Source: an uncultured Actinomycetota bacterium (GTDB lineage Bacteria; Actinomycetota; Actinomycetes; JAHEKZ01). From it: DNA of 64,000 nucleotides. Numbering within the stretch: position 1 is the stretch's first letter; every line of letters begins with the position of its first letter. The position numbers and the translations under genes are program-made. Shown piece after piece: positions 12,298 through 30,100 of the stretch. Below the pieces are notes generated by a model. The model did no database searches, had not been told where the DNA came from, and saw only the letters and a list, made by a program, of their open reading frames with translations. The stretch covers positions 1 to 64,000 of the forward strand of contig CAVQYR010000001.1 in assembly GCA_963718235.1 (NCBI GenBank), written 5' to 3'.

Positions 12298-12582
12298 ATG
12301 TTGGACGGTGAACACCTCCCCCTGGCCGACGTGAAGAACCGCCTCTCCGAGGTGGTGGATCGGCTGGAGCGCGAGCACGGACGGGTGGTCATCACCAAGC
12401 ACGGGCGTCCGGCCGCCGTCATGCTGAGCATCGCCGACCTGGAGTCGCTGCAGGAGACACTGCAGATCCTGAGCGATCCCGCCCTGGTCGCCGACATTCG
12501 TACGGCCGAGGCTGAGCTTGCTCGCGGCCAAGGCGATGCGCTCGACGAGGCTGCGGTCCGCCGGCTGATCGGCGAACGTTGA
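12298..12582 (+). CDS. Phd/YefM-family antitoxin
   Basis: LPLADVKNRLSEVVDRL...VVITKHGRPAAVM...LESLQETLQILSDP; TACACT -10 box 7 nt upstream suggests a leaderless start. Confidence 0.9.
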   Translation: MLDGEHLPLADVKNRLSEVVDRLEREHGRVVITKHGRPAAVMLSIADLESLQETLQILSDPALVADIRTAEAELARGQGDALDEAAVRRLIGER

Positions 12583-12854
12583 GCCAGCCCGATTTCGCGA
12601 TCGTCTGGACCTCCCCGGCCACTCGGGCCCTGGTCCGCCTCCCGGAGAAGGCCGCGTCGGCCGTCGTGGAGCTGCTCTACGGCTCGGTCTCGCAGAACCC
12701 GCAGCGCGTCGGGCGCGCACTGAGCTCCCCGCTCGACGGGCTGCATACCGCGCGGCGCGGCGACTACCGGGTCATCTACCGGATCGAGCGTGGCCCGCGG
12801 CGCGTCACCGTGGTCGCCATCGGGCACCGCTCGGACATCTACCGGCGACGCTGA
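12579..12854 (+). CDS. RelE/ParE-family toxin
   Basis: Overlaps the antitoxin stop; NPQRVG...ARRGDYRVIYRI...IGHRSDIYR. Confidence 0.9.
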   Translation: MSQPDFAIVWTSPATRALVRLPEKAASAVVELLYGSVSQNPQRVGRALSSPLDGLHTARRGDYRVIYRIERGPRRVTVVAIGHRSDIYRRR

Positions 12855-12930: not shown

Positions 12931-14379
12931 GTGGAAGCCGTCGTCCTGATCGCCCGCCTGGTGCTCGCCGTCACCTTCGTGGTGTCGGCCGTCGCCAAGC
13001 TGCGCGACCGCTCCGGCTCCCGCAAGGCCGTGGCCGACTTCGGCGTACCACCCGAGCTGGTGGGGCCGATCGCCGTCCTGCTCGCCCCGCTGGAGATCGC
13101 GTCGGCCGCCCTGCTGCTCACCGCCGGGTTCGGAGTGACCCTCGGGGCGCTGCTCGGCGCAGGGATGCTGCTGGCCTTCACCGTGGCGATCGTGATCAAC
13201 CTGATCCGCGGCAACCGGGTCGAGTGCCACTGCTTCGGCGCGATGTCCACCAAGCCCCTGTCGTGGTGGTCGGTCGTGCGCAACGTCGCGCTGATCGACG
13301 TCGCTCTGATCGTGCTCGCGGGAGGCGTGAGCCAACCGTGGCCCTGGGTCGCCGTCGCCGACCTGTTCTCACCGCTGTCGGTCTCCGAGCGCTGGCTGTG
13401 GGTGTTCGTGCTGGTTCTGGTCGCCGCGGTCGGTGTCCTGTCGTACCTGTTCTTCACTCTGCTGCGCCAGTACGGCCACGTGCTCGTGCGGCTCGAGGGC
13501 CTGGAGTCCACCGGACACATCGCCCACGCCCACGGGCATGCCCGTGACTTCGAGCCGTGGCAGGCGCCCGACCTCCAGGTCGTGGATTCCGCGGAGTCGT
13601 CGCTGGCGCTGGTCGACGTCCTCACCGCCGACCGAGCCTCGCTGTTCGTGTTCGTCAGCCCTGGGTGCGAGGCGTGCGGCGAGCTCGTCGACGACCTGGT
13701 GGCCTGGCAGGACGACGACGAAGGACCCAACGTCGTCGTGCTCTCACCCGGCGAGCGCTCCGCCATCGCCGCGAAGTTCGGCGAGGTGCACGTGCTCTCC
13801 CACGACGGCGCCGTCATCGACGACTACGGCATGGAGTACACGCCCGGTGCGCTCGTCGTGTCGACCGACGCCATGGTGACCACGCCCCCGGCGTACGGCT
13901 CGGACGACGTGCGCCGGCTCTACGACCTGCTGGCCGGTCGGGTCCCGCCGGCCGACGTCGAGATCGGACCACCCCCCGTGCGCGAGGGCGACCCGTTGCC
14001 GTCCTCGACGGTGACCTTCAAGGGGTCTTCGATGCCGATCGCGGCCGCCGTGTCCGCGGCGGTGGGCGACGACGACGCCGTCCTGCTGTTCTGGGACACC
14101 ACCTGCGGGTTCTGCCAGCAGATCACCTCTGACATCGCCCGGCGCTCCGGCACCGTTCCGCTGCTCGTCGTGCTCCGCGACGACGCGAGCTCCGAGCTCG
14201 CCGCCTCCGGGATCACCGCACCCGTGGTGCTGGACCCGGCGTTCGACGTCGGCAACGCACTTCAGGCGCCCGGAACGCCGTGCGCGGTGCGGGTGCGCGA
14301 CGGCGCCGTGGCCTCGACCGTGGCCGTAGGCGGCCCCGAGGTGCTCGACCTGCTGGCCGCCGTCCGCGTCTCGCGCTGA
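12931..14379 (+). CDS. MauE/DoxX membrane domain fused to two thioredoxin-like (MauD/TlpA) domains
   Basis: N-terminal TM bundle with SAVAKL and ECHCFG; FVSPGCEAC...YTPGA and FWDTTCGFC...GTPCA thioredoxin motifs. Confidence 0.85.
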   Translation: MEAVVLIARLVLAVTFVVSAVAKLRDRSGSRKAVADFGVPPELVGPIAVLLAPLEIASAALLLTAGFGVTLGALLGAGMLLAFTVAIVINLIRGNRVECHCFGAMSTKPLSWWSVVRNVALIDVALIVLAGGVSQPWPWVAVADLFSPLSVSERWLWVFVLVLVAAVGVLSYLFFTLLRQYGHVLVRLEGLESTGHIAHAHGHARDFEPWQAPDLQVVDSAESSLALVDVLTADRASLFVFVSPGCEACGELVDDLVAWQDDDEGPNVVVLSPGERSAIAAKFGEVHVLSHDGAVIDDYGMEYTPGALVVSTDAMVTTPPAYGSDDVRRLYDLLAGRVPPADVEIGPPPVREGDPLPSSTVTFKGSSMPIAAAVSAAVGDDDAVLLFWDTTCGFCQQITSDIARRSGTVPLLVVLRDDASSELAASGITAPVVLDPAFDVGNALQAPGTPCAVRVRDGAVASTVAVGGPEVLDLLAAVRVSR

Positions 14380-14386
14380 CCCCCCG

Positions 14387-14434
14387 CACCTGCTGAGGAA
14401 AGCGCCCTCAGCGGGCCCGATTTCTCAGCAGGTG
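14387..14434. repeat. REP-like palindrome, family A, copy 1
   Basis: CACCTGCTGAGGAAA...TTTCTCAGCAGGTG; similar copies at 28976 and 45887. Confidence 0.7.
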
Positions 14435-15078
14435 GCCGCTAACGCAGGATCTGGGCGCTCAGGGTGCTGTGCAGCCACTCCCGATAGGCGCGCTTGCTCC
14501 ACCGGCGGTTGCGGCGCAGCAGATGGTGCAGGTGCGGCGAGCCGAGGGCGTACAGGACGTCGGCTGCCGCGCTCGGAGTGCATCCCGGGGGCCAGAGCGC
14601 CCAGCCGGTCGAGGTGCTCGGTCAGCGCCAGGTAGTGGGCGTGGGTGGCCCGCGAGCCCGCCTCGGCCGCCGCCCGCATGTCCGGGTCGGCGCCCGCCGC
14701 CTCGACGCTGACCATGATCAGGTCGCCCGCCCGGTCGAGCAGGTCGGCTGCCTGGTCGAGGGTGACCGCCAGCACGGTGTGGGGGTCCTGCAGCGTCAGC
14801 ACCTCGTCGGCCATGCGGTCGCCCACCGACCGCTGGCCCTCGTCGCCGACGATCGCGACGTTCAGCGTGTGCTGGAACAGGGCTGCCTTGCTGGGAAACG
14901 CCAGGTAGACCGTCCGCTCGGCGACGCCGGCCGCCTGGGCCACCTGCCGGATGCTCGTCGCGACGTAGCCCTGGTCGACGAACAGCCGGGCCGCGGCCTC
15001 GCGCAGCGCGGCGCGGGTTGCCGCCGCCTGGGCGTCGCGGACCGAGGATCGGTACGACCTCTTGACGTCGTCGGGCAC
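14425..15078 (-). CDS. TetR-family regulator (probable 3' frameshift)
   Basis: RAALREAAARLFVDQGYVATSIRQVAQAAGVAERTVYLAFPSK. Confidence 0.88.
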   Translation of the reverse strand: MPDDVKRSYRSSVRDAQAAATRAALREAAARLFVDQGYVATSIRQVAQAAGVAERTVYLAFPSKAALFQHTLNVAIVGDEGQRSVGDRMADEVLTLQDPHTVLAVTLDQAADLLDRAGDLIMVSVEAAGADPDMRAAAEAGSRATHAHYLALTEHLDRLGALAPGMHSERGSRRPVRPRLAAPAPSAAPQPPVEQARLSGVAAQHPERPDPALAATC

Positions 15079-15100
15079 GGGGGTCCACACTCCCTTTCGA

Positions 15101-15115
15101 TACAGTGCCACTGTA
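15101..15115. promoter_or_regulatory. Probable TetR operator
   Basis: Perfect palindrome TACAGTG-C-CACTGTA between the divergent tetR and VOC genes. Confidence 0.65.
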
Positions 15116-15136
15116 GCCAATAACGAGGTGAGACCG

Positions 15137-15598
15137 ATGACCCGACCCGCACTCGACGGACTGTTCGGGGTCAAGCTGCCCGTGACCGACCTGACCCGGA
15201 GCCTGCGGTGGTACCAGGAGGTGTTCGGCCTCGAGGTGTACCTGGAGTTCCCCGACGACGACGGCGTGGTCCGAGGAGTGGCCTGCCGCGCGGCCGGCCT
15301 CGGGGACACCGCCATCGGGCTCCGGGAGAACCCAGCAGTGGCGCGCGGGATCGCCGGGTTCGACCCGGTGATCTGGGCCGTTCCCGACCAAGCAGCCCTC
15401 GAGGAGTGGGTCACCCACCTCGACACGCTCGGGATCGCGCACTCCCCCGTGATCGACGCGTCGATCGGATGGCTGCTGGTCTTCCACGACCCCGACGGCC
15501 TCGAGATCCACCTGTACACCCGAACCAAGCACGGCATCGACCAGGACGGCCGGAGCGGCTACGGCCGCCCAACCGAAACGGGCGCGGCGACCGCCTGA
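15137..15598 (+). CDS. VOC/glyoxalase family protein
   Basis: VKLPVTDLTRSLRWYQEVFG...FHDPDGLEIHL. Confidence 0.85.
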   Translation: MTRPALDGLFGVKLPVTDLTRSLRWYQEVFGLEVYLEFPDDDGVVRGVACRAAGLGDTAIGLRENPAVARGIAGFDPVIWAVPDQAALEEWVTHLDTLGIAHSPVIDASIGWLLVFHDPDGLEIHLYTRTKHGIDQDGRSGYGRPTETGAATA

Positions 15599-15741
15599 GC
15601 CCTTCTGCCGCAGGTGAGCGGCCCTACGGGGCTGAGCGATGCCCCCCGGCCCTGCGTCACCCAGATGGCGGAACGGGTCACGCTGGCGGTAGCCCTGGCG
15701 CCGTACAGTGGAGCCACCACTTCCCCGCTTCAGGAGCCACC

Positions 15742-16173
15742 GTGAGCAGCTGGCTGGATCGCTGGGCCAGGCGCGCGGCTACCCCGGATGACGATGCTGC
15801 CCTAGCTCAGCCGTCGGCGACCCCGAACGAGCCGGCAGCAGCGGCGCACCCGTCCCGGCGCGCCGTGCTGAAGAAGGCCGGCCTGGTCGGTGGGCTGGTG
15901 TGGACCGTTCCGGTGATCTCGACCGCGCTCGCGCCCGCCGCCTCGGCGTCCGGCGGGGGGCTCGGGCTGCCGTGCTCGCCCGAAGGAAGCACCTGCACGG
16001 GCGGGTCGGTCTGCTTCACCGGCATCTGTGGCGCCCCCGGAGCACCCTGCGCCGGAGGCTGCTACTCCAGCACCTGCGGCAAGGGTGTCTGCGGAGGCAA
16101 GAACGCGTCCTGCGGCGTCGGCGTCCTGTGCGCCCCTGGCCTGACCTGCGCCAAGAACGGCAAGTGCAAGTAG
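15742..16173 (+). CDS. Cys-rich twin-arginine precursor P1 (12 Cys)
   Basis: AGGAG RBS, GTG start; SSWLDRWARRA...SRRAVLKKAGLVGGLVWTVPVISTALAPAASAS, then three 4-Cys modules. Confidence 0.85.
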   Translation: MSSWLDRWARRAATPDDDAALAQPSATPNEPAAAAHPSRRAVLKKAGLVGGLVWTVPVISTALAPAASASGGGLGLPCSPEGSTCTGGSVCFTGICGAPGAPCAGGCYSSTCGKGVCGGKNASCGVGVLCAPGLTCAKNGKCK

Positions 16174-16336
16174 CTGCCCACCTGGGTCGACGAGGATCTC
16201 ACGCCGGATCGGGCCCGAATCGGGCGTGATCGGGCGAGGCCGGTGATCGTGGGCGTGCCGAGGGAGGCATCCCCTAAGCGTTTGACCCGAACGGCATACC
16301 GGGTCGACCCCTCGTGGACCCGGGTGAGGAGTGACT

Positions 16337-16932
16337 GTGGGCGGCTGGCTGGACCGCTGGGCCAAGCGTGCTGTTTCGACGTCCCGGACCACGACCCACG
16401 CCAACGGGCTCAACGACCGGCCTCGCCCATGGCCGGGTCGACGCCGTCCCGCTCACGGCGCGACTTCATGAAGAAGGCAGCCGTCGTCGGCACTGCGGTT
16501 TGGGCGGTTCCCGTCATCCAAAGCACCGTGGCGCCTGCAGCAGCAGCGTCAGGAACGGTGTGCTCGAGCCCCGATGGCACCTGCGGCACGCTCGTCTTAG
16601 GGCCGGGGCCCTGCGTCCCGTGCTCGATCGGGGTGGCGTGCGGCACCGATACGGACTGTGCCACCAGGGTCGGCTGCGCATCACGCTCCGGAAGCACCGT
16701 CTGCGGAGGCCCCGGCGCCACCTGCCGCAACGACTCTCACTGCCTGTACTCCAACTGCCGCAGCGGCACCTGCGGGTACGGGGCCACGTCCCAGGCGGCT
16801 TCCTGCGGCACGCCCACCGACCAAGCCGCCAACGGACCGGCCAACGACGACGCGTGCGAGACCGGGTGGTACTGCAAGCCGAGGGTGGTCGACGGCGACT
16901 CCGGCTTCCGTTGTCGCTCCACGACTCCCTAG
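16337..16932 (+). CDS. Cys-rich twin-arginine precursor P2 (16 Cys; frameshift in the linker)
   Basis: GAGGAG RBS, GTG GGC GGC TGG CTG GAC CGC TGG GCC AAG CGT GCT = MGGWLDRWAKRA in one frame; SRRDFMKKAAVVGTAVWAVPVIQSTVAPAAAAS and the Cys core in another. Confidence 0.8.
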
Positions 16933-16939
16933 CGCGCGG

Positions 16940-17911
16940 GTGAACCCGAAGGCAAGCCTCACTGACGCATCCGTGGCATCGGCGACCCTGGAGTTCATCC
17001 GTCGACGGCGGGGGCACTTGCTCCTGCACTCCGGCGGTCTGGCCACGGCGGAGGGTCGAGTGGTCGTGGTCCATGGCCAGTCCGGCTCGGGCAAGACCAC
17101 GCTCACCGCGGCGCTCGCAGCAGCCGGGCTGGCGTACGTGACCGACGAGACCGTGTGCCTGGATCCGGGCACTCTGGAGATCGAGCCGTTCCGCAAACCG
17201 CTGACGATCAAGACCGGCTCTCAACGAGTCCTGAAACACCTGGAACCGGGGCAGGATCGGATCGACCCGAGCAGTGGCAGCTGGCACGTCGACCCTGATG
17301 CCCTGCTGAGCTTCGGGGCGAGCGAGCTGCCGGATCGGCCCCTGCATCCGGCGGTCATCGTCTTCCCCGACTTCGAGCCCGACACCGACGGCGTCGACGT
17401 CCAGCCGGTCAGCCGGGCTCGAGCCGCCTTCGTGCTCGGTGAGCAGTCCAGTGCCCTGTGGGCGGTCGAACCGCGTCCGCTCGGAGCGCTGTGGAGGCTC
17501 GTGCACAGAGCACCGGCCTACCGGGTGAGCTACGCGAGTGCGTTCGACGCTGCCCCGATCGTCGTCCGCGAGCTGCTCGTGCCAGGAGACGCCAACCCCC
17601 CACCCCTACCGGGACCGGATGAACTATCCGCCCCCAGTACACCGGCCAGCACGCCGCTTCGAGGGCTCCCGGCCCCCAAACAGGGAGTCGACTGGCTGCT
17701 GCTGGACGGCGAGGCGGTGCTGTTCGACGGTAACCACCTGCATCACCTCGACGCGCCAGGTGCCGCGGTATGGGAACTGGTTGATGGCACCCGTGACCAG
17801 GCGCAGGTGGCCGCCGAACTGGCCGAGCGCTTCGGTGCCGACCCCGACACCGTGCTGCTCGACGTCGAGGACCTCGTGCGAGTGCTGCGACTTCAAGGCC
17901 TGCTCACCTGA
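16940..17911 (+). CDS. HPr-kinase-related P-loop protein fused to a C-terminal PqqD/RRE domain
   Basis: LLLHSGGL, Walker A GQSGSGKTT, YVTDE, PFRKPL; C-terminus LDGEAVLFD...HHLDAPGAAVWELVDG...LAERFGAD...DVEDLVRVLRLQGLL; start uncertain. Confidence 0.82.
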   Translation: MNPKASLTDASVASATLEFIRRRRGHLLLHSGGLATAEGRVVVVHGQSGSGKTTLTAALAAAGLAYVTDETVCLDPGTLEIEPFRKPLTIKTGSQRVLKHLEPGQDRIDPSSGSWHVDPDALLSFGASELPDRPLHPAVIVFPDFEPDTDGVDVQPVSRARAAFVLGEQSSALWAVEPRPLGALWRLVHRAPAYRVSYASAFDAAPIVVRELLVPGDANPPPLPGPDELSAPSTPASTPLRGLPAPKQGVDWLLLDGEAVLFDGNHLHHLDAPGAAVWELVDGTRDQAQVAAELAERFGADPDTVLLDVEDLVRVLRLQGLLT

Positions 17912-17995
17912 TCGGTGGCCCGGCGTGGCGCCGTGATCGGGCACGATCAGCCCGGGATGATCGAAGGTCAGAGTCGTCTCACGAAGGGTGTGGCC

Positions 17996-18565
17996 ATGGC
18001 CGGCTGGGTCGACCGCTGGGCGAAGCGCGCCGCTTCGTCCGCGCCGCGCCCGGAAGCGATGCCTGGCGACCCTTCGCCCGCCCCGTCTCCTCAGGCCAGC
18101 TCGCACTCGCGCCGCGCCTTCATGAAGAAGGCGGGCGTGGTCGGCGCCGCCGTCTGGACCGTCCCCGTCATCCAGAGCGCCGTGGCCCCTGCTGCCGCGG
18201 CCTCCGCCACGGTCTGCTCCGGCGGAGGCGGGACGTGCGGCGTGCTGCTCTCCGGGCCGGGGCCGTGCCCCAAGTGCGCCACGGGGGTTGCGTGCTCGAC
18301 GAACAACGACTGTGCCACCGGTGTGGGCTGCAGCTCACGGACCGGTACCACTGTGTGCGGCGGCCCCGGAGCCGCGTGCAACAACAGCGGCAACTGTCAG
18401 TACAACAACTGTACGAACAGCATCTGCGGGTACAGCGCCGGCTTCTTCGGGTCTGCCTGCGGAACACCGAACGGCTCCTTCAACGGCCCCCCGAGAAACG
18501 CCGCCTGCCGCTCCGGCTCGACCTGCAGGGTCGGGCCCACTGGCCAGTACCGCTGCCGCCCGTAG
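17996..18565 (+). CDS. Cys-rich twin-arginine precursor P3 (16 Cys)
   Basis: MAGWVDRWAKRA...SRRAFMKKAGVVGAAVWTVPVIQSAVAPAAAAS; Cys pattern collinear with P2. Confidence 0.85.
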   Translation: MAGWVDRWAKRAASSAPRPEAMPGDPSPAPSPQASSHSRRAFMKKAGVVGAAVWTVPVIQSAVAPAAAASATVCSGGGGTCGVLLSGPGPCPKCATGVACSTNNDCATGVGCSSRTGTTVCGGPGAACNNSGNCQYNNCTNSICGYSAGFFGSACGTPNGSFNGPPRNAACRSGSTCRVGPTGQYRCRP

Positions 18566-18588
18566 TCCAGCGCTCGAGCCAGACCCTG

Positions 18589-18620
18589 CCCCTCGAGCAC
18601 CCGATCCGGTGCTCAAGGGG
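18589..18620 (+). terminator. Stem-loop between P3 and P4
   Basis: CCCCTCGAGCACC-cgatcc-GGTGCTCAAGGGG, 12 of 13 positions paired. Confidence 0.5.
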
Positions 18621-18677
18621 TCGGCCTCGTGCGCCGACGTCCGTTGAGGGGTCGTGTACCGCGAGGTCGAGGTAGGT

Positions 18678-19781
18678 ATGAGCAGCTGGCTGGACGGTTG
18701 GGCGCGGCGTGCCGTGCGCCCGCCCGTCGGCGACCCCTCAGCCACCCCTTCGGCCAGCCCCTCGACCACCTCCCGGGCCGGCTCGGCGGCAGCCCCAACG
18801 CCTGCACTGAGCCGCCGCGACCTGATCAAGCGCGCCTCGGTGGTCGGCGCCGCTGCCTGGGCCACCCCCGTGCTGCAGACGGCCCTGGCTCCCGCGGCCT
18901 CGGCGTCCGGGCCGACCCCCGACCCCTGCCTCACCACCGGCACCTGCCCCCCCGGCGCCCCCTGCACCACGGACGCCGACTGCGGCTCCGACGACTGCAA
19001 CACCGGCACCGGCGTCTGCCGGGCCTCCGGCGTCGACGGCACGTGCTCAGCGAACGTCGACTGCCTGACCGCCAACTGCGCCTCCGGGGTCTGCGACGAG
19101 GCGTGGCCGGGCGGCCCGTGCCAGGCCAACGCCGACTGCATGTCCGGCATCTGCCAGGCCAACAAGACCTGCGCGAACAGCCCCCTCTACAAGCCGTGCC
19201 GGACGGCGGCCGACTGCGGGGCCGGGGTCTTCTGCGCGTCGACCGGTCTCGGCGGCGGCGTCTGCGCCACGGCCTGGCCCGGCTTCGGTACCTGTTCGGT
19301 CAACGCCGGATGCACGAGTAACAACTGCAACACCAAGGCCAACCCCAAGGTGTGTCGTCAGAACAACGCCGGCGGGACCTGCCGGATCAGCGCCGACTGC
19401 ACCACCGCCTTGTGCAACTTCGGCGCCGGTGTGTGCGCCAAGTCCAACGCCGGTGGGGTCTGCGCCGCCAACAAGGACTGCACGACCAACCAGTGCGTGG
19501 GTCCGAACGGTGCCAAGACCTGCGCCCAGCGCTACTCCGGTGGCAACTGCTCGGCCGACAGCGACTGCTACGCCGGGCACTGCCTCGCGACGGCGAAGTG
19601 CAGCAAGGGCGGCGCGGGTACACCGTGCAGCTCCGGCAAGCAGTGCTTCTCGAACAAGTGCACCGCTGGGCTCTGCACCACCAGCTCCAAGAAGCGGGGC
19701 TGCTGGACGACGTCGGACTGCACCGCCCCGCTTACCTGCGTTGGCGGCGACGGCGACCTCGTGAGCGGAACCTGCCAGTGA
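18678..19781 (+). CDS. Cys-rich twin-arginine precursor P4 (42 Cys; ten C-x5-C-x4/5-C-xn-C modules)
   Basis: MSSWLDGWARRA...SRRDLIKRASVVGAAAWATPVLQTALAPAASAS, followed by tandem GxxCxxxxDCxxxxC repeats. Confidence 0.87.
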   Translation: MSSWLDGWARRAVRPPVGDPSATPSASPSTTSRAGSAAAPTPALSRRDLIKRASVVGAAAWATPVLQTALAPAASASGPTPDPCLTTGTCPPGAPCTTDADCGSDDCNTGTGVCRASGVDGTCSANVDCLTANCASGVCDEAWPGGPCQANADCMSGICQANKTCANSPLYKPCRTAADCGAGVFCASTGLGGGVCATAWPGFGTCSVNAGCTSNNCNTKANPKVCRQNNAGGTCRISADCTTALCNFGAGVCAKSNAGGVCAANKDCTTNQCVGPNGAKTCAQRYSGGNCSADSDCYAGHCLATAKCSKGGAGTPCSSGKQCFSNKCTAGLCTTSSKKRGCWTTSDCTAPLTCVGGDGDLVSGTCQ

Positions 19782-19806
19782 CCGGCTCGGCCGAAGGACG
19801 GTGCCC

Positions 19807-22008
19807 ATGAGCGGCGAGCGCGTACGGCAGAGCCTCATGTTCGGAGTGGTTGTCGCGCTGGCGCTCGCGGTCGCCCCGGCGACCCCGGCAGCCGGCAAGA
19901 CCGCATCGACTCGCCCCGACCGGGTCGCTCGGTATGCCGTCGACTCGTTCGGCAACCACGGGCACGGCGAGATCCGGACCGTGGACGCCGCCGAGCTCGG
20001 ACCCCTCGGCCTGCCCGAGGCCACGCCGACTACCGCACGCGGCCGGGAGTCCGCCGCCGGAATCGCCACCCACCCGGTGACCGTCGTCCCCGTGAACTGG
20101 CCCGGGCTCGCCGCGGACGCGACCACCCCCGCCCAGCTCAGCAACACCGTTGACACCGCCATCGCCAGCTACTGGGACGACAACACCGGCGGCGCGGTCA
20201 AGTTCACCACCACGTCCGCACTCCCCTGGACCACGCTCAGCTCAGCGCCGTCCAACCCCTGCGGCAACCCCGGAGGGCTGGCCAACCAGATCGCCACCCA
20301 GCTCGGCTGGGTCTCGACCGCTCGCTCTCACCTCGTCATGTACCTGCCGTCACTGGGTTGCGGGTGGGCGGGTGTCGGCTCGGTCGGCGGAAGCACCGAC
20401 TCCGGCGGCTGGGCGCTGCTCAACGCCAACGCGAGCGTCTCGGTGCTCGGCCACGAGCTCGGCCACAACATCTCCCTCGAGCACAGCTGGCGCAGCACGT
20501 GCTTCGAGGCCGACGACGCGACCGGTGTCTTCGACGGGGCAGCCGCTCACTGCGGGTTCCGTGAGTACTACGACCTCTACGACATCATGGGATTCGCCCA
20601 CACGGCGATGCCCGGAGACCTCAACCCCGGGCACCTGCAGAAGCTCGGGCTGGCCTCGCTGGTCTCTCCCGTCACGGTCAACACCTTGACCATGACGGCA
20701 CCGGTCACGATCGACCTCGCACCCCGCTCGGCGGCAGCGGGCACCGAGGCGATCAAGCTCGTCGGTGGTGACACCTACTGGGTCGAGTACCGAACCGACG
20801 CCGGGCGCGACGCGTGGCTCAACGCGAGCTCGGCCTACGCCTTCCACCCCGGTGTCGTGGTGCGCCGGATGTTCAACCCGTCTCTCGTGGGCCGCAGCTA
20901 CCTGCCCGGTCTGCTCGACGCCACGCCGGTGAGCGGAGCCGGTGCCACACCGGGCACCTACGACCCGGTCGAGCTGGCCGTCGACACCGTCATGACCACG
21001 CAGGACGGCGTGCGGATCGTGGTCAAGGCCCAGGACGACGCCGGAGCCACCGTCAAGATCCTGCCGCCCACCGACACCACCGCACCGCCCGACGTCGACG
21101 TCACCCGACCCGCGCGCACCTACCGGACCGACGGCACCTGGGTGACCCCTGACTCGGCCTTCACCCTGAAGTGGCAGGCCGTGAAGGATGACGACAGCGG
21201 CGTCGACCACTACCTCGTGATGCTCGACGGCACGCCGGTGGCGACGGTCCCTCGCGCTGCCGGGGTGACCACCTACACCGAGCCCGTCGTCCTGACCGAG
21301 GGCCCCCACGTGCTCGGTGTGAAGGCGGTCGACGTCGCCGGCAACACGGGTGGCATGGGCGTACGTCTGCCCTACGAGCTGGACAGCTTCCCGCCCGTGG
21401 TCGATCGGGCGCTGGCGCTTCGGCTGCGGGCCGGTGCCTTCACCGCCGGGGACGCACCGGTGGCGGCGTCCTGGTCGGTCCGTGACCCCGGCTCTGGCCT
21501 GCGCACGCTCTCGCTTCGACACGGGAGCGCGTCTGCGCAGAAGCTCAAGCCGTCGGCGTCGTCTACCGCGACGCACCTGAGGCGCGGCCGCTACACCTCC
21601 ACGCTCGTCGCTCGGGACTGGGCCGGACGCAAGGTGACGTCGACGGTCGGCGTCGCACTCACCCGGCCGAGCGAGTCCGCGGCGAGCTACAGCCGGGGGT
21701 GGGGCCGCCGGGCCGTTCGCGGCTCCTTCGCCGGGCGCGAGCTCGTATCGACGTCACGGTCGGCCACGGCAACGTTCCGCTTCAACGGTCGGGCCGTCGC
21801 CTGGGTCGGCTCACGTGGCCCGGGCCGCGGCGTCGCCGTCGTCCGGGTCGACGGTGGAGCCCCGCAGCGGGTCACGCTGCGCGCCGACCGCACCCAGACC
21901 CGGCGTGCGCTCGTGGCCCGCAACTGGTCGACGTCGGGCGCGCACACGCTCACGATCACCGTGCGGCGGGGTTCGGTGGCGGTCGACGGCTTCGTCGTCC
22001 TGAAGTAG
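19807..22008 (+). CDS. Secreted zinc metalloprotease (M11/M6-like) with Ig-like and C-terminal beta-sandwich domains
   Basis: Signal peptide; HELGHNISLEH (HExxHxxxxxH); EYYDLYDIMG Met-turn; YWVEYR; AVDVAGN Ig-like motif. Confidence 0.8.
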   Translation: MSGERVRQSLMFGVVVALALAVAPATPAAGKTASTRPDRVARYAVDSFGNHGHGEIRTVDAAELGPLGLPEATPTTARGRESAAGIATHPVTVVPVNWPGLAADATTPAQLSNTVDTAIASYWDDNTGGAVKFTTTSALPWTTLSSAPSNPCGNPGGLANQIATQLGWVSTARSHLVMYLPSLGCGWAGVGSVGGSTDSGGWALLNANASVSVLGHELGHNISLEHSWRSTCFEADDATGVFDGAAAHCGFREYYDLYDIMGFAHTAMPGDLNPGHLQKLGLASLVSPVTVNTLTMTAPVTIDLAPRSAAAGTEAIKLVGGDTYWVEYRTDAGRDAWLNASSAYAFHPGVVVRRMFNPSLVGRSYLPGLLDATPVSGAGATPGTYDPVELAVDTVMTTQDGVRIVVKAQDDAGATVKILPPTDTTAPPDVDVTRPARTYRTDGTWVTPDSAFTLKWQAVKDDDSGVDHYLVMLDGTPVATVPRAAGVTTYTEPVVLTEGPHVLGVKAVDVAGNTGGMGVRLPYELDSFPPVVDRALALRLRAGAFTAGDAPVAASWSVRDPGSGLRTLSLRHGSASAQKLKPSASSTATHLRRGRYTSTLVARDWAGRKVTSTVGVALTRPSESAASYSRGWGRRAVRGSFAGRELVSTSRSATATFRFNGRAVAWVGSRGPGRGVAVVRVDGGAPQRVTLRADRTQTRRALVARNWSTSGAHTLTITVRRGSVAVDGFVVLK

Positions 22009-22037
22009 CCGCACTCACCGCGAGGTGAGCACTGCCG

Positions 22038-22616
22038 CTAGGGGGTGACGGGGGCAGCCGAGACGAGGTCGAGCAGGGCCTGGCAGGCGCCGAACAGGAC
22101 CAGCATCGCCGCCACAGCCAGGACGCCAACCACGATCCGTCTGCGCATCCTTCTCGACGTCGTCGGCACGCGCGGCACGGCCATCCGGACCGGCTGCTGC
22201 TGCGGGTTCATCGGAGCCCGCGGCTGCGCGGCGCGCGCGGAACCGGCCGGCGGCGGCACCGGAACGGAAGGCTGCGCAGCCGCAGGAGCCGTGGGTGGTG
22301 CGGGCACGAACTGCGTGGCGTCGAACTGATGGGGATCGGGCTGGGCCGGGCCAGTGGATCCCCCGGGCTGGCCCAGCGGCTCGAAGCTCGGCGACCGCAC
22401 GGCCGGCGCGCCGCCCTCGACCGGCGGCGCCGACCCGAGCACGGCGGGGCTGTCCGGCACCGGTACGGCGATTCCGCAGGTCGGGCACTCACCGACGACC
22501 GACGCCACGGTGTGCCCGTTGCTGCAGGTCACCCAAAGGGCCAGCCCGCACTGCGTGCAGTAGCGCTGCTTGTCGCCGTTGGCGTGTCCGTTCGGACAGG
22601 TGACGGAGTCCCCCAT
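22038..22616 (-). CDS. Double zinc-ribbon, Pro-rich, membrane-anchored protein
   Basis: CPNGH...YCTQCG...CSNGH...CPTCG, Pro/Ala linker, C-terminal TM segment. Confidence 0.65.
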   Translation of the reverse strand: MGDSVTCPNGHANGDKQRYCTQCGLALWVTCSNGHTVASVVGECPTCGIAVPVPDSPAVLGSAPPVEGGAPAVRSPSFEPLGQPGGSTGPAQPDPHQFDATQFVPAPPTAPAAAQPSVPVPPPAGSARAAQPRAPMNPQQQPVRMAVPRVPTTSRRMRRRIVVGVLAVAAMLVLFGACQALLDLVSAAPVTP

Positions 22617-22629
22617 GACCGACGCCCGA

Positions 22630-24714
22630 TCAGGGCATCTGCTGGAGGGCCTGGACCTGCTCGAGCGGTGCGGTCAGCGGGTCGAAGGCGGGCCGAGGAG
22701 TCGGCGGGATCCAGTCGACCGGGGGCTCGTCGCCGACATCGTCGAGCCCAGGACCGGGCGGCTCGACGATCACCCGCGGCGCAGACGCGGCCGGCGCTGG
22801 GGCGACCGGAGCGCCGGTGGCCCGAGCCGGCTGGGGCGGGGTGACCGGCCGGGGGGCGGCTACGGGCGAGGGGGCTGGTCGCATGGTCGCTGGTGCGCTG
22901 GCCGGGGCTGGTGTCGCTGGCGAGGGCACCGGGACCGACAGGGTCGCCGGCGCAGGGGTGGCCGGCGCAGGGGTCGCAGGGGTCGCGGGGGTCGCGGGGG
23001 TCGCGGGGGTCGCGGGCGCAGGGATCGCCGGAGTGGCCGGCGCTGGCTTCGCCGCCGCGGCCGGTGTCCGAACGGGCACCGACAGCGTGGCGGGAACCGG
23101 TGCTGCTGCGGGCTTCGAAGCCCCCGAAGCAGGGGCGGGTCGGGCGGGCACCGACAGCGTGGCGGGAACCGGCTGGCTGTTCGCACCAGCGCTGGGTGCG
23201 GGCACCGCGCCCGCCGGGGCCTTCGTCGCGGACGACGACCCGTTGGCCCCGTTGACCGCCGAGGCGGCCGCCCCGATGACCGGCGCTGCCGCCGTGGCGC
23301 GGGCCAAGGTCGGCACGAAGTCGGCGTCCAGCTTGCTGCGCTTGCCGCCCGGCGACTTGTAGTCGTAGTTGTAGCTGTACCCGTAGCGGTGCGCGTCAGG
23401 ACCCTTCTGTGGGGCCATGTTGAAGACGAGCCCGAGGATCCGCCCGCCGACGTTGGAGATGCTCTCCTCCGCCGTCCGCAGCTGCTCACGTCGCACCTTG
23501 CTGGCCGCGGCGACGATGATCGCCCCGCCGGACATCTTGGTGAGCACGGCACCGTCGGTGACGGGCAGCAGCGGGGGTGCGTCGATGATCACCAGCGCGC
23601 GCTGCTCGAGGTGGGCGATCAGGTCGGCCATCGCCTGCGAGCCGACCAGCTCGGCCGGGTTCGGCGGCAGCGGTCCAGCCGGCAGCACCCACAGGTTGCC
23701 CGTCGGCCCCCACGGCTGCAGCACCTCGTCGACGGTCGCGCGACCGATCAGGACGTCGGTGAGCCCGGCGTTGCCCTCGATGCCGAGGTACTCGGCCACC
23801 TTCGGACGACGCAGGTCGCCCTCGACCAGCAGCACGGGCTGGCCGGTCTGGGCGACGGTGATCGCGAGGTTGACCGCCGTCGTCGACTTGCCCTCACGTG
23901 GGATGGCCGATGCCACGACAAGGGACTTCGGTCGGTGGTCGATGTCGACGAACTGCAGGTTGGTGCGCAGCTGCCGGAATGACTCGGCGCGCTTGCCGCG
24001 CGAGGAGTCCTGGGTGATCAACGGCTTCTTCGCAGCCTCGTTGTCGTACCCGATGGCCGCGAGGATGGGGATGTCGAAGTGCTTCTGCAGCGCCTCGACG
24101 CTCTTGATCCGGGTGTCGAGGGTCTCCAGCAGCACCGCTGCACCCACACCGATCGCCAACCCGACGAGGAAGCCGAGCGCCAGGTTGATCTTGGTGCGCG
24201 GAGTGATCGGAGACGTCGGCAGGGTCGGTGGCTCGATCTCGCTCACGGTGACCAGTGACTGCCCACCGCCGGTCGGCTGGGTGAACTCCTGCGCGGCCTG
24301 CTGGAACTGCTTGGCAGCAGAGGCCGCGATCCGCTGCGCGACCTCGGGGTTGGGGTCGGTGGCCGAGATCTCGATCACCACGGTTTCCAGCGGGTTGTTG
24401 GCGCTGAGCTTGGCGGCCACCTGGTCGGGAGTGATCGACAGGTTGAGGTCGTCGACGACGGCCTGGGTGACTCGCTCGCTGGTGACGACGTCGATCAGGG
24501 AGGTGACCAGCTGCTGGGTGTAGAGGCTCCCGGTGTACGCGGTGCCGACGTTGAGCTGGGAGTCGGTCGCGGAGATGAACACCTTGGTGGTCGACTGGTA
24601 GATCGGGGTCGTCAGCATCGAGGCGAGCGCTGCGGCCAGCACGCCCACGAGCGTGGTTGCGGCGATCAGCCGCCAGCGCGCCCGCAGGACGTCGAGGTAG
24701 TCGCGCAGCTCCAC
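22630..24714 (-). CDS. Polysaccharide co-polymerase / tyrosine autokinase (Wzc/CpsCD-type) with a long Pro/Ala/Thr tail
   Basis: MELRDYLDVLRARW; AESFRQLRTNL; SAIPREGKST; EGDLRRP; IIDAPPLL; Tyr cluster YGYSYNYDY. Confidence 0.92.
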   Translation of the reverse strand: MELRDYLDVLRARWRLIAATTLVGVLAAALASMLTTPIYQSTTKVFISATDSQLNVGTAYTGSLYTQQLVTSLIDVVTSERVTQAVVDDLNLSITPDQVAAKLSANNPLETVVIEISATDPNPEVAQRIAASAAKQFQQAAQEFTQPTGGGQSLVTVSEIEPPTLPTSPITPRTKINLALGFLVGLAIGVGAAVLLETLDTRIKSVEALQKHFDIPILAAIGYDNEAAKKPLITQDSSRGKRAESFRQLRTNLQFVDIDHRPKSLVVASAIPREGKSTTAVNLAITVAQTGQPVLLVEGDLRRPKVAEYLGIEGNAGLTDVLIGRATVDEVLQPWGPTGNLWVLPAGPLPPNPAELVGSQAMADLIAHLEQRALVIIDAPPLLPVTDGAVLTKMSGGAIIVAAASKVRREQLRTAEESISNVGGRILGLVFNMAPQKGPDAHRYGYSYNYDYKSPGGKRSKLDADFVPTLARATAAAPVIGAAASAVNGANGSSSATKAPAGAVPAPSAGANSQPVPATLSVPARPAPASGASKPAAAPVPATLSVPVRTPAAAAKPAPATPAIPAPATPATPATPATPATPAPATPAPATLSVPVPSPATPAPASAPATMRPAPSPVAAPRPVTPPQPARATGAPVAPAPAASAPRVIVEPPGPGLDDVGDEPPVDWIPPTPRPAFDPLTAPLEQVQALQQMP
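22924..23172. repeat. Coding tandem and dispersed repeats in the autokinase tail
   Basis: 9-bp ggggtcgc(g/a) array near 22970-23015 (PAT)n; gggcaccgacagcgtggcgggaaccgg duplicated near 23074 and 23146 (VPATLSVP). Confidence 0.7.
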
Positions 24715-24846
24715 CGAGAGTGACCCTTCGTCCCCGTTCCTTCGAGGCGCCGTCGAGCCGACGGACCCCGTGCCCGGGTCGACGAACCGAGCCCGGCCTC
24801 TCAGGGTGACGCATGGCCCCCCCTGGGGACAACCCGGTGCGCCAGA

Positions 24847-25227
24847 ATGTCACAAATGCCCCCTGAGCCTCAGCCGTCACAGGAGGACGACCGGCCGGTC
24901 CGGCGTCCGCAGTGGGTCGCCCACGTCCTGGACGGCGAGCACGCGGTGCTGCTCCACCTGCCCAGCGCCCGCCGGGTCGCCCTGTCCCCTGAGGCGACCG
25001 CCGTGTGGGAGCTGGTGGTGGCCGCGGGCGGTGACGGCGTGCGCGCCGACGCCCTCGTGGCCGCTCTGGCCCCCCGCTACGACGCCGACCCCGAGGTGAT
25101 CGGTCGAGACGTCCGGGCCCTGCTCGACGACCTGGTCGGCGGCGGCTGGGTCGAGCCGGTCGAGCCAGATCCGGTCGCAGAGGCGACGACTCCGCCGGCC
25201 GACAAACCGGCCGGGGGCGACGCGTGA
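24847..25227 (+). CDS. Stand-alone PqqD/RRE-family protein
   Basis: VLDGEHAVLLHLPSARRVALSPEATAVWELV...LAPRYDADPEVIGRDVRALLDDLVGGGWV. Confidence 0.8.
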   Translation: MSQMPPEPQPSQEDDRPVRRPQWVAHVLDGEHAVLLHLPSARRVALSPEATAVWELVVAAGGDGVRADALVAALAPRYDADPEVIGRDVRALLDDLVGGGWVEPVEPDPVAEATTPPADKPAGGDA

Positions 25228-26183
25228 GGCGTTGGCTCGGCGTTCTAGGGGTCCTGGTCCTGCTGGTCGTCACCGGCGCGGTCGTGGTGCTGGCGTTGCG
25301 ACCCGCGGAGCCTCCCCCGACGCCTGACGCGCCTGCGGGCGCCGGCTCGCTCGCCGTCGTCGGCGACCGCATGTGGCGGTGGCTCGGGCCGAGCGAGTGC
25401 ACACCCGCCGCCGACGACGCCCCGCTCGAGCGCTGGGTGCGGGGTATGTGGCAGCCGGCCGACGTCCCGCTGGTGAACGTCACCGCGATCAGCTTCACCA
25501 ACGCACGTGACGGGATCGCGGTCGGCACGACGTCCAACTGCGCTCTCGGCCTGGTCGTGACCCGCGACGGTGGGGCGACCTGGGCATCGCCTCCGCAGTC
25601 ACCACCGATGCTCGACGCCGTGCTTGTCGGTCGCACGGTGTGGGCCGTCGTCCGAGGAACGGAGTCGGGGCAGACCCTGGTCACCGGCTACACGCTGGAC
25701 GGCGAGCCCGTGGACAGCACGCCGCCGATCGACACCTCACCGTGTGACGAGACCGACGGGACACCGACCCACGTCGCGGCGTTCACCGCCGACTTCGTCC
25801 TGCAGCTGTGCCAGCAAGGACCGAGCAACGGGCGCCTGCTCGCCCGCACGGTCGACGGCGGTGTCATCTGGGACCGGCTCACCGACAACCGCGTGCTGAC
25901 CGGGCTGGACGGCGACGGGACCTTCACCCGGCTCGAGGTCGCCGGCGTCTCGTCGGTCTGGGTGCTGTTCGTCGGCGGGGAGTGCTCCGAGGGGCAGCTG
26001 CGCCGCAGCGCGAACACCGGTCAGTCGTTCGAGCGCCTGCCCTGCCCCTCGAAGGGGGCCAACGTTGCCGAGGTGTTCGACGTCGCGTTCAGCTCCGCCA
26101 CCGACGGCACGTTGCTCGGGCTGGACTCTGCCGGCGAGCCCGTTGTCCTGACCTCGACGGATGCCGGCACCACCTGGGAGTAG
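25224..26183 (+). CDS. Membrane-anchored BNR/Asp-box beta-propeller protein
   Basis: N-terminal TM; TRDGGATW, TVDGGVIW, SANTGQSF, STDAGTTW; overlaps the PqqD stop. Confidence 0.75.
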   Translation: MRRWLGVLGVLVLLVVTGAVVVLALRPAEPPPTPDAPAGAGSLAVVGDRMWRWLGPSECTPAADDAPLERWVRGMWQPADVPLVNVTAISFTNARDGIAVGTTSNCALGLVVTRDGGATWASPPQSPPMLDAVLVGRTVWAVVRGTESGQTLVTGYTLDGEPVDSTPPIDTSPCDETDGTPTHVAAFTADFVLQLCQQGPSNGRLLARTVDGGVIWDRLTDNRVLTGLDGDGTFTRLEVAGVSSVWVLFVGGECSEGQLRRSANTGQSFERLPCPSKGANVAEVFDVAFSSATDGTLLGLDSAGEPVVLTSTDAGTTWE

Positions 26184-26319
26184 GGCGACTGCAGCCCCGC
26201 TCGAGGGCGTTGCCCGGGGCGTCCTCACCCGTGTTGCCAGCTACCCTCACTGCCACCGATCCCGGGAGTCGGAGGCGTCACGGCGCCTGTCCCCGAGCCC
26301 ACGTCCGAACTGGAGCAGC

Positions 26320-26670
26320 ATGGCCGCCCTCGAGCAACCGCTTGCACTTCCCGTCTCCACCACGTTCGAGATCGCCAACCGGACCATCTCCGAGCACATC
26401 GGGCCGGCGTTCGGCATCATCGCCTGGTCAGCCGGAACCGCCGCAGGGGTGAAGTCGTTCGGCCGACAGTTCAAGCGGGGCGAGATGACTGAGTTCACCG
26501 ACGTTCTCGCCGAGGCGCGCGAGATCACGTTGCAGCGTCTGGTCGCCCACGCACAAGCCCTGGGCGCCGACGCCGTGGTGGGAGTCCGCTTCGACTCCAA
26601 CACCATGGGCGAGTCCGCTGGCCTGGTCGAGATCCTGGCACTCGGCACGGCTGTCAAGCTCGCCAACTGA
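26320..26670 (+). CDS. YbjQ/UPF0145 family protein
   Basis: GEMTEFTDVLAEAR...LGADAVVGVRFD...GTAV. Confidence 0.88.
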   Translation: MAALEQPLALPVSTTFEIANRTISEHIGPAFGIIAWSAGTAAGVKSFGRQFKRGEMTEFTDVLAEAREITLQRLVAHAQALGADAVVGVRFDSNTMGESAGLVEILALGTAVKLAN

Positions 26671-26723
26671 GCCGCAACTCGCCGAGCCATGGTGCCGTGG
26701 TCGGGCCGAGGCATGCTCTCACC

Positions 26724-27296
26724 ATGAGTCTGGCTGATGCGCCCCGGGTGCACATCGAGTCGATCGAGCAATGGCGCGAATGGCTGGCGGCCCACCACCT
26801 CACGGAGACGGGCGTGTGGTTGGTGACCTGGCGAAGCGCCACCGGCCGAGCCGCTCCGACCTACGAGGAGCAGATCCAGGAGGCGCTGTGCGTCGGCTGG
26901 GTGGACAGCACCCGAAAGCGGATCGACGACGACCGCACCATGCTGTACTTCGCCCGCCGCCGCCCCGGGAGCCCATGGGCCCGCACGAACAAGGCGCGCA
27001 TCGCACGATTGGAGGCCGAGAGGCGGATGCTGCCGGCCGGTCAAGCGGTCGTGGACCGGGCTCGGGCCGACGGCTCATGGACGTTGCTCGACGCGGTGGA
27101 GGACCTCGTCGTCCCTGATGACCTTGCGGCAGCGCTTGCCCACCACAATGGTGCACGCGAGCAGTGGGAGGCCTACTCCGTCTCGGCGCGCAAGCAACTG
27201 CTCTGGTGGATCGTGCAGGCCAAGCGGCCTGCGACGCGCGCGGCACGGATCGAGCAGACCGCCCTCCGCGCATCACGCGGTGAGCCGGCACCATAG
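26724..27296 (+). CDS. YdeI/OmpD-associated family protein
   Basis: WREWLAAHH, EALCVGWVDS, SPWARTNK, AKRPATRAARI. Confidence 0.88.
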   Translation: MSLADAPRVHIESIEQWREWLAAHHLTETGVWLVTWRSATGRAAPTYEEQIQEALCVGWVDSTRKRIDDDRTMLYFARRRPGSPWARTNKARIARLEAERRMLPAGQAVVDRARADGSWTLLDAVEDLVVPDDLAAALAHHNGAREQWEAYSVSARKQLLWWIVQAKRPATRAARIEQTALRASRGEPAP

Positions 27297-27316
27297 TCAC
27301 GCCGTTACCCTCAGGT

Positions 27317-28346: not shown

Positions 28347-28497
28347 GCCGCGGCCCCGTGAGTCGACGATCTGCTGGCCAGAGGTACGGCATCATGGGCA
28401 AGCACTCATGCCGGCCCGTGCATCGCGTCGAGAGAATGGTTCTGTCGATCGTCGTTCGGCGCGGCCATGCGACGTTGCTGACTATTCGGAGGTGCCC

Positions 28498-28962: not shown

Positions 28963-28975
28963 GGTTCACAGCAGT

Positions 28976-29020
28976 TGCTGAGGAAACTCGCCACTTGAGG
29001 GCCTGTTTCCTCAGCAGGTG
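28976..29020. repeat. REP-like palindrome, family A, copy 2
   Basis: TGCTGAGGAAAC...GTTTCCTCAGCA between convergent genes. Confidence 0.7.
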
Positions 29021-29038
29021 CCCGTCCAGCCCGGGCGG

Positions 29039-29392: not shown

Positions 29393-29475
29393 CCCCGGGA
29401 ACCTACCGCCTCCACACTGCTGCCGGCTTCAGACGGATCTGACCGCAGCGTCTAGAGCATTGCTACGGTCGGGTC

Positions 29476-30015: not shown

Positions 30016-30025
30016 GGGCCCACGA

Positions 30026-30100
30026 ATGACCGGTCTCGGGTCGCCCGACCCGGCCACCGTCATCGACAACCGTGGCGACAAGGCGGTCCTCACCGACGGT
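30026..30100 (+). pseudogene. YciI-family gene fragment (5' side of the DGP motif)
   Basis: GLGSPDPATVIDNRGDKAVLTDG. Confidence 0.45.

Follow-up and report, generated by a model that had tools for sequence, protein, structure and literature searches.

The closest described relatives of the system presented here are the LPP clusters of Bacillota, with the genes LppA/K/B/S/D/N (PMC13381572, Nat Commun 2026). According to that paper, the kinase LppK, together with LppB, a recognition element (RRE) for peptides that are made on ribosomes and modified after translation (RiPPs), polyphosphorylates Ser3 of the core in precursors that carry a YxxPxVL...T-xx-S leader, with a spacing of 18 between Tyr and Ser, and the clusters lie in capsule loci. 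The same paper describes lasso and LPP RREs as recognising a [Y/W]xxPx[L/V/I/A/F] box in the leader, and its authors consider LPPs and paeninodins to be restricted to Bacillota and the function of LPPs to be unknown (PMC13381572). Here we describe a gene cluster of Actinomycetota, located at 12931-26183 of a stretch of 64,000 nucleotides (positions 1 to 64,000 of contig CAVQYR010000001.1, hereafter the window) from an uncultured actinobacterium with a genome of 3.17 Mb. In this cluster an HprK-like kinase fused to a PqqD-type RRE is encoded among four genes (P1 to P4) for Cys-rich proteins, whose shared leader contains a twin-arginine translocation (Tat) signal. With moderate confidence, we read the cluster as an actinobacterial variant of the HprK-like-kinase/RRE peptide-modification system of LPP and paeninodin type, one that would act on whole secretory proteins.

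Other known systems share single components with this locus. Members of the HprK-related kinase A family (TIGR04352) have PqqD-family and nucleotidyltransferase partners and are found in exopolysaccharide loci; we know of no substrate or leader described for them. Zhu et al. reportedly described the paeninodin-type lasso peptide kinases in 2016. MauE and MauD mature the small subunit of methylamine dehydrogenase, a Tat-exported protein with six disulfides.

The genes that carry our argument are given below in window coordinates. The G+C content of the window is ~70% and genes were therefore called via codon statistics; domains are Pfam and NCBIfam profile matches of the window proteins.

12931-14379, + strand: fusion of MauE, MauD-like and thioredoxin-like parts, hereafter MauE-Trx (PF07291, 97 bits against a cut-off of 27; TIGR02661 MauD, E 1.6e-5, at 24.5 bits below the equivalog cut-off of 188.6)
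15742-16173, + strand: P1, leader and 74-amino-acid core with 12 Cys
16337/16429-16932, + strand: P2, core with 16 Cys; GTG of the N-terminal motif at 16337, in-frame ATG at 16429
16940-17911, + strand: kinase-PqqD fusion (TIGR04352, E 9e-23; PF05402, E 7e-13)
17996-18565, + strand: P3, leader and core with 16 Cys
18678-19781, + strand: P4, leader and 291-amino-acid core with 42 Cys in about ten 4-Cys modules

No second locus of the genome carries the P family or the fusion. P2-P4 are 42-48% identical to P1, with 28 invariant columns across the four paralogs, and P1-P4 match none of the Pfam or NCBIfam families other than the Tat signal model. A search of the Atlas with the P4 core gave weak leads only (0.80 and 0.75), the second of which points to a Dickkopf_N/EB-module cluster.

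We found that the shared leader is composed of three parts. In an alignment of 14 intact leaders from the window and its relatives (A2, 68 positions), residues M1, W4, D6, A9, R39, R40, W54, P57, A64, P65 and A66 are invariant. The first part, M-x-x-W-[LI]-D-x-x-A-[KR], begins at the initiator codon and is preceded by a purine-rich ribosome-binding stretch. The second is a Pro/Ala/Ser-rich spacer followed by the twin-arginine motif S/T-R-R-x-[FL]-[LM]-[KR]-[KR], and the third is a hydrophobic stretch that contains W-x-x-P-[VA]-[LIV]-Q-[ST] and ends in A-P-A-A-[SA]-A-S. The WxxP box in this last part fits the box read by lasso and LPP RREs. Furthermore, WxxP is present in all 33 leader proteins examined that are encoded next to a kinase gene in the genomes surveyed below (31 by pattern and two, where the pattern failed, by eye). 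The distance from the RR motif to the Trp is 15-16 residues in 30 of 31 such leaders, and a Ser is found at W+16 or W+17 in 29 of 31.

The leader has the features of a Tat substrate, namely a twin-arginine motif, a moderately hydrophobic stretch and an AxA site, in a genome that encodes the Tat machinery (TatC, 225 bits). P2 and P3 score 18.0 and 18.1 with the Tat signal model TIGR01409 (cut-off 16.7; P1 and P4 are not listed), in agreement with the Tat-type signal proposed in the preliminary description, which was made from the sequence of this stretch. That description had also recognised the leader as shared; it did not set the N-terminal motif apart from the Tat part, and this motif is a second element. 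The N-terminal motif is in frame with the RR motif in 10 of 10 metagenomic P homologs that retain the N-terminus (12 retrieved) and, judging from these reading frames, it is translated. It was seen only alongside MauE-Trx and Cys-rich cores.

P2 is one of the four paralogs, as had been claimed. Its N-terminal motif, the middle stretch and the RR motif, however, occupy three different reading frames, so that two 1-nucleotide shifts are required to bring the first into frame with the last. One short-read contig (X1 record 3, 2 differences in 200 bases) matches 16405-16415 and resumes at 16417. Base 16416 is missing in this reading of the contig's loose end, which joins the last two frames of P2 and thereby removes one of the shifts. 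The low-depth contigs leave 16332-16405 uncovered and the first shift is thus outside their reach. We regard the frame breaks of P2 as probable assembly errors, because many such shifts are found in other genes of the window and of several relatives; alternatively, P2 may be a pseudogene.

Upstream of the P genes, a DNA alignment revealed a (T/G)(C/G)ACC(C/T)(G/A)A..CGG-like box ~80 nucleotides 5′ of each P start (15658, 16286, 17905 and 18598). A loose CACC(C/T)..-type pattern has 13 matches in the window against 4.6 expected, most of them elsewhere, and is not specific to P genes. A promoter and terminator scan returned no promoter-like site and one terminator-like site, versus 2.3 expected.

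The fusion protein combines a P-loop kinase of the HprK/PEPCK fold (residues 1-220) with a lasso-type PqqD/RRE domain (residues 245-323). The best NCBIfam match of the kinase part is TIGR04352, at 80.7 bits, which is under the curated cut-off of 200 that defines the equivalog. H30, G51, K52, D69 and E70 are invariant in 57 diverse fusion homologs, in the H...GxSGxGK[ST]...D-[DE] arrangement of HPr kinases; we take these positions to be the counterparts of the HprK residues. A structure model built from the 57-sequence alignment has a mean pLDDT of 94.7 and supersedes a first model from five sequences, in which the kinase part was poor (pLDDT 59). The fold matches of the model, with Z score, root-mean-square deviation (rmsd) and aligned length, are as follows.

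RRE domain: TbiB1-leader complex, Z 12.5, rmsd 1.6 Å, 82 residues
RRE domain: lasso B1 (6jx3), Z 12.3, rmsd 1.9 Å, 82 residues
Kinase: ATP-PEPCK nucleotide domains, Z 11.7, rmsd 4.3 Å, about 205 residues
Kinase: HprK/P (1ko7), Z 10.8, rmsd 3.3 Å, 134 residues
Kinase: HprK/P (1kkl), Z 10.7, rmsd 3.6 Å, 138 of 167 residues

Searching the PDB by sequence with the fusion alignment (A3) returned just PqqD/TbiB1 and P-loop scraps. Public databases hold 87 relatives of the fusion at E <= 0.001; the closest ones are mostly fused, and the relatives carry either no name or the label 'PqqD family peptide modification chaperone'. We also noted a protein (P0094, for which the source names Demequina sediminis) with a kinase-like domain fused to a low-molecular-weight phosphotyrosine phosphatase (LMW-PTP) domain, and a locus in which an LMW-PTP gene (L041:7381-7932) adjoins a kinase/PqqD pair. 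Both are further links of such kinases to Wzc/Wzb-type tyrosine phosphorylation systems.

Co-folding of the fusion (alignment A3) with residues 1-70 of the P3 leader (alignment A2) gave ipSAE values of 0.73, 0.72 and 0.74 in three runs, compared to 0.00-0.02 for three controls. The mark that was passed is reached in 116 of 157 solved complexes and in 2 of 215 mismatched pairs, and the runs share at least 53% of their contacts. The confident interface places leader residues 52-66, comprising the W54-P57 box and what follows it, on the RRE strand 262-274 and helix 294-319, which in this prediction is the canonical RRE-leader mode. It also takes in kinase residues 164 and 167-174, which lie within an invariant FVLGEQSSA.W segment. 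Together with the invariant WxxP box and the genome-wide co-localisation described below, the controlled co-fold supports the earlier proposal that the RRE reads the shared leader: binding of the leader box by the lasso/PqqD-type RRE is a prediction supported by sequence, context and model.

In the co-fold it is the signal peptide's own hydrophobic stretch that is covered by the interface, and this lends something to another role for the fusion, which we consider unlikely, namely that of an export-timing or proofreading chaperone. Under this hypothesis the RRE would mask the signal peptide and the P-loop would use ATP only for release, once the core is folded or oxidised. Tat substrates of complex folding often have dedicated signal-binding chaperones, and the fusion can be likened to those of redox enzymes; moreover, no downstream LPP enzyme at all is found in the window's family. 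A chaperone role sits poorly, however, with the invariance of the HprK-type residues H30, K52, D69 and E70 across diverse sequences and with a Ser kept at fixed spacing in nearly all leaders. It is also at odds with the homologous HprK-like kinases of the LPP and paeninodin systems, which phosphorylate (PMC13381572).

Co-localisation of leader and kinase genes extends well beyond the window. Among 61 related genomes, an ortholog of the fusion is found in nine, at 54-63% identity, and in all nine P genes lie on the same contig within 3 kb. We searched a class sample of 401 genomes with a leader profile and a fusion (kinase/PqqD) profile, which match 71 and 72 genomes, respectively. In this sample 78 of 149 leader matches lie within 5 kb of a kinase/PqqD match, in 42 genomes, 32 of which are outside the window's family. 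In a phylum sample, also of 401 genomes, 37 of 57 leader matches (E <= 1e-5, own genome excluded) are within 3 kb of a kinase/PqqD match, and this holds for 25 of 31 leader-positive genomes (5 of the 25 are unpublished). As a span of 10 kb is ~0.3% of a genome, almost no such pairs are expected by chance. The neighbourhood check that the preliminary description had called for, with a profile of the leaders, therefore comes out in favour of the association in both samples.

The cores behind this leader are unrelated to each other: they include other Cys-rich domains, an Ig-like protein of the CarboxypepD_reg type and a Pro/Thr-rich protein with LPNTG and a membrane anchor. Outside the Cys-rich branch, kinase and PqqD are encoded by two separate genes, and the loci often contain PF14907, glycosyltransferases, an LMW-PTP, and Wzc-like or sugar-transferase genes. 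That the neighbourhood is mere coincidence, with some small, unannotated peptide as the target of the kinase-RRE and with P proteins that are ordinary Tat substrates, is in our view highly improbable. Synteny within one family can indeed be inherited rather than selected, and the search for small open reading frames (ORFs) was not exhaustive. Yet the association recurs in many families and in other classes with the gene order rearranged, an ordinary Tat lipoprotein signal near one of the loci (L051:15906-17345) lacks the WxxP box, and the co-fold controls stay at 0.00-0.02.

The following genes of the window lie around the P genes and the fusion or belong to the cluster in relatives.

14425-15090, - strand: TetR gene, between MauE-Trx and P1
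15137-15598: glyoxalase gene, between MauE-Trx and P1
19837-22008, + strand: secreted M11-like zinc protease (HELGH) with Ig-like domains (PF05548, E 3.8e-8)
22630-24714, - strand: Wzc-type tyrosine autokinase (TIGR01007, 149.8 bits)
24856-25227, + strand: free PqqD-family protein, divergent from Wzc (PF05402, E 8.9e-11)
25224-26183, + strand: BNR/Ycf48-like membrane-anchored protein (weak PF14870/PF02012 matches), overlapping the free PqqD gene at its stop codon
39943-40587, - strand: LPXTG-anchored protein; in relatives a homologous LPXTG gene directly follows the BNR gene
40688-42421, - strand: DUF4012 protein; in relatives directly after the BNR gene, with the LPXTG protein

All elements named in the preliminary description (MauE/Trx, four Cys-rich paralogs, kinase-PqqD, protease, Wzc and free PqqD) are thus present where it placed them, and its overall interpretation is borne out in part. 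We compared the window proteins with 15 fetched loci by tblastn. In the window's family the gene order is MauE-Trx, P genes, fusion, P, Wzc on the opposite strand, free PqqD, BNR-like and LPXTG protein. Family f20 (loci L045 and L055) keeps a P gene with full leader, kinase, PqqD, Wzc, a second PqqD, BNR-like, DUF4012 and MauE-Trx, in a partly rearranged order. Among loci of metagenome-assembled genomes (MAGs) with 40-44% kinase identity, MauE-Trx is found in L067 and L068 and Wzc in L066-L068; L067 also has a PF14907 nucleotidyltransferase, and glycosyltransferases after Wzc. One genome (G005) carries additional Wzc/PqqD/P copies (L039 and L040), one of them also with BNR and MauE-Trx.

Wzc, which has a Wzz domain, a P-loop, the Tyr cluster YGYSYNYDY and a Pro/Ala-rich tail, is a neighbour of the cluster at all 12 loci that could be evaluated. 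The free PqqD, 41% identical to the fused one over 70 amino acids, is kept beside Wzc in 10 of 12, and BNR-like orthologs follow the free PqqD gene in relatives, including L045 and L055. This synteny suggests that the P products are tied to a Wzc / free PqqD / BNR / LPXTG / DUF4012 module. The protease, which had been taken for a member of the system, is found at 2 of the 15 loci (the window and L055, 29% identity), with no tblastn match in L026-L040; it is an occasional accessory.

Multi-copy genes with hypervariable Cys-rich cores after a constant leader recall many bacteriocin families, and the distribution of the cluster is patchy even inside the genus. One could then take the P proteins for secreted factors with an antimicrobial or competitive role, made by a RiPP-like cluster and defensin-like in their richness in disulfides, and the Wzc/PqqD/BNR genes for an unrelated envelope locus. 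We hold this to be quite unlikely, in view of the constant presence of Wzc, which includes families f1 and f20 and the paralogous copies in G005. Immunity or ABC-export genes were not found in the locus, and in other families this leader precedes an LPNTG-anchored protein and an Ig-like one.

The MauE-Trx protein has five predicted transmembrane segments (TM), a conserved C99-H-C101 and two thioredoxin-like domains with CxxC at 246/249 and 392/395; six Cys are conserved in 10 orthologs. In 7 of the 8 f1 loci that could be judged, its gene lies immediately upstream of either the first P gene or the kinase (one genome, G019, was left out of this count as its contig is too short), and no MauE-Trx was found within the 20 kb fetched from G003. 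It is likewise kept with the cluster in L045, L055, L067 and L068. Synteny in two families (f1 and f20) and in more distant MAGs thus upholds the functional tie between MauE-Trx and the cluster that had been proposed. The position upstream of P1 was also correctly described, and the intervening TetR and glyoxalase genes are a peculiarity of this window that relatives do not share. Counts of Lys plus Arg in 10 orthologs place loops 1 and 3 and the stretch after TM5 in the cytoplasm; by this rule of thumb, to which we give low weight, the thioredoxin domains may be cytoplasmic, which would fit oxidation before Tat export. PF02975 (methylamine dehydrogenase light chain) has no match in the genome, but control genomes are equally silent. 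A second MauE-domain gene of the genome (G000:C1:1627354-1627746; L072 8355-8747) has trpA on one side and, on the other, a gene for a DsbA-like protein with a membrane anchor, after which comes lgt. In this organism, proteins of the MauE type may serve generally as membrane partners for those with a thioredoxin fold.

From these data we propose the following mechanism for the favoured kinase-RRE reading. The cytoplasmic fusion would bind each precursor via its PqqD/RRE domain at the W-x-x-P-[VA]-[LIV] box inside the Tat signal peptide, as sequence, context and co-fold suggest. By analogy with core Ser3 of LPPs, the kinase would then phosphorylate the Ser at the leader/core junction (W+16-17). 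Release from the RRE would free the signal peptide for Tat export and for cleavage by the general signal peptidase. The membrane thiol-disulfide oxidoreductase MauE-2xTrx, linked to the cluster by synteny, may handle the 6 to 21 disulfides of the cores. The products would be envelope or secreted proteins associated, again by synteny, with the Wzc / free PqqD / BNR / LPXTG / DUF4012 module. Disulfide formation in the P cores and the Tat export route are thus what we infer, and phosphorylation of the P precursors is expected from the analogy. The 'Ser/Thr-rich cores' put forward earlier as the kinase target find no support, the conserved candidate being one Ser at the leader/core junction.

Several observations weigh against this reading. 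The kinase score under the TIGR04352 cut-off is one of them, and in G001, a genome of the same genus with 99% completeness, kinase and P genes are both missing. In the co-fold the leader has a pLDDT of 44, passing the mark amounts to likeness rather than proof because RRE-leader complexes have already been solved, and the N-terminal motif finds no confident placement. The junction Ser lies within an Ala/Ser-rich, AxA-type cleavage region and could be conserved for the signal peptidase alone. An RRE on the hydrophobic stretch would compete with the translocase. Furthermore, the P cores are proteins of 74-291 amino acids, unlike classical RiPPs, and the window's family lacks the nucleoside triphosphate (NTP) transferase, the dedicated peptidase and the exporter of LPP clusters.

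A broader hypothesis, to which as a whole we assign a low likelihood, is a phylum-wide system of tagging before export in Actinomycetota, in which the signal peptide of selected secretory proteins doubles as a RiPP-type leader and the kinase-RRE marks the new N-terminal region. The phospho-Ser would be a handle by which nucleotidyl- and glycosyl-transferases under Wzc control link the protein to polysaccharide of the envelope, be it as a glycan primed or capped by protein or as a sorting signal that resembles PEP-CTERM/exosortase but sits at the N-terminus. For the branch of the window, disulfide formation by MauE-2xTrx would take place on the cytoplasmic face, which would explain the use of Tat.

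Some further features of the window were noted. Between the BNR-like gene and the LPXTG and DUF4012 genes lie ~13.7 kb of miscellaneous genes of lower G+C (26200-39900, 65-69%), which include a mycothiol S-transferase, a methyltransferase, an alcohol dehydrogenase (ADH), DinB and an F420H2-dependent reductase; this segment is probably an insertion or rearrangement relative to relatives. Just downstream of Wzc, an ORF of 57 amino acids (22038-22211, - strand) has an Arg-rich N-terminus, one membrane helix and no family match. Immediately upstream of MauE-Trx is a Phd/YefM antitoxin and ParE toxin pair (12298-12854), and at 8695-9333 (- strand) a secreted-looking protein of 212 amino acids without a Pfam match. 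A sulfur-related block (47211-55277) encodes a molybdopterin oxidoreductase (962 amino acids), a fused 4Fe-4S dicluster/NrfD protein, TusA, a DsrE-like protein, a rhodanese-metallo-beta-lactamase protein, a SulP/STAS transporter and an ArsR regulator. Genes at 4852-6403, 7795-8625, 10416-11111 and 2541-3331 seem to be split or to have nonsense tails: a major facilitator superfamily (MFS) transporter in two ORFs, a pyridoxal phosphate (PLP) decarboxylase and a sugar kinase whose C-termini are odd, and fragments of ABC and resolvase genes. In relatives, similar breaks occur in the kinase, MauE-Trx and Wzc genes, and such split genes look like single-base indel errors in the assemblies.

RRE-guided modification is seen as a chemistry of small peptides that have their own dedicated leaders. 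In the present system the RRE box is inside the Tat signal peptide of ordinary-sized secreted and wall-anchored proteins, and it recurs across Actinomycetota. If the kinase-RRE reading is correct, a modification enzyme can read a signal peptide ahead of the translocase, and the newly described kinase/RRE system of Bacillota reaches a second phylum. It would also supply the uncharacterised HprK-like/PqqD genes of polysaccharide loci with a definite substrate and a site that can be tested, and the MauE-Trx partner would be a way into what MauE-family proteins do for disulfide-rich Tat substrates.

How does this locus then compare with known systems? Literature searches, supplements not being covered, retrieved no description of an actinobacterial kinase-RRE/Tat-leader system, and the main text of RRE-Finder does not contain 'kinase', 'HPr' or 'twin-arginine'. 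Two components of LPP clusters are recognised in the window: an HprK-like kinase, from the TIGR04352 match, the HprK/P and PEPCK fold matches and the invariant residues, and a lasso/PqqD-type RRE with its leader box, from PF05402, TbiB1, WxxP and the co-fold, the binding itself being predicted. Among the window genes there is no S24/S26 peptidase that could stand for the SipW-like peptidase of LPP clusters (the PF10502 matches of the genome are all on contig 2). The PF14907 NTP transferase has no match in the genome and is found in the related loci L043, L045, L052, L058 and L067, and no MsbA-like/ABC exporter is encoded within 12.9-26.2 kb.

By the published description of LPP clusters (PMC13381572), the two systems have in common an HprK-like kinase with an RRE, a [Y/W]xxPx[VLI] box with a Ser 16-18 residues further on, several long precursors per cluster (35-200 amino acids) with variable C-termini, a location in polysaccharide loci, and leader removal by signal-peptidase-type chemistry. 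On the same basis they differ in that the RRE is fused to the kinase here and discrete in LPP. In the present system, moreover, the box is part of a twin-arginine signal peptide, the cores, of protein size, are rich in disulfides and MauE-Trx is added; the phylum differs too, Actinomycetota versus Bacillota. The locus also resembles the paeninodin type, with an HprK-like kinase for a leader-bearing precursor and an RRE of lasso B1 type. The Pfam families of the lasso macrolactam cyclase (C) and of the B2 peptidase were not found among the window genes; the P products cannot be lasso peptides. It resembles the TIGR04352 system in that, at distant actinobacterial loci, the kinase goes together with PqqD, PF14907 and Wzc-like genes, and differs from it in the score of the fusion, which is under the family cut-off. 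With mau operons it shares a MauE membrane protein and a MauD-like thioredoxin fold near disulfide-rich twin-arginine proteins; here, in contrast, MauE and MauD are fused and a second thioredoxin domain is present. The view of the preliminary description, that the locus fits no RiPP class, needs to be revised, since LPP and paeninodin-type kinases share its kinase and RRE logic and are likewise found in polysaccharide loci (PMC13381572). Taken together, these comparisons indicate that the system is neither a member of the LPP class nor categorically new; it is a variant of the LPP/paeninodin kinase-RRE logic.

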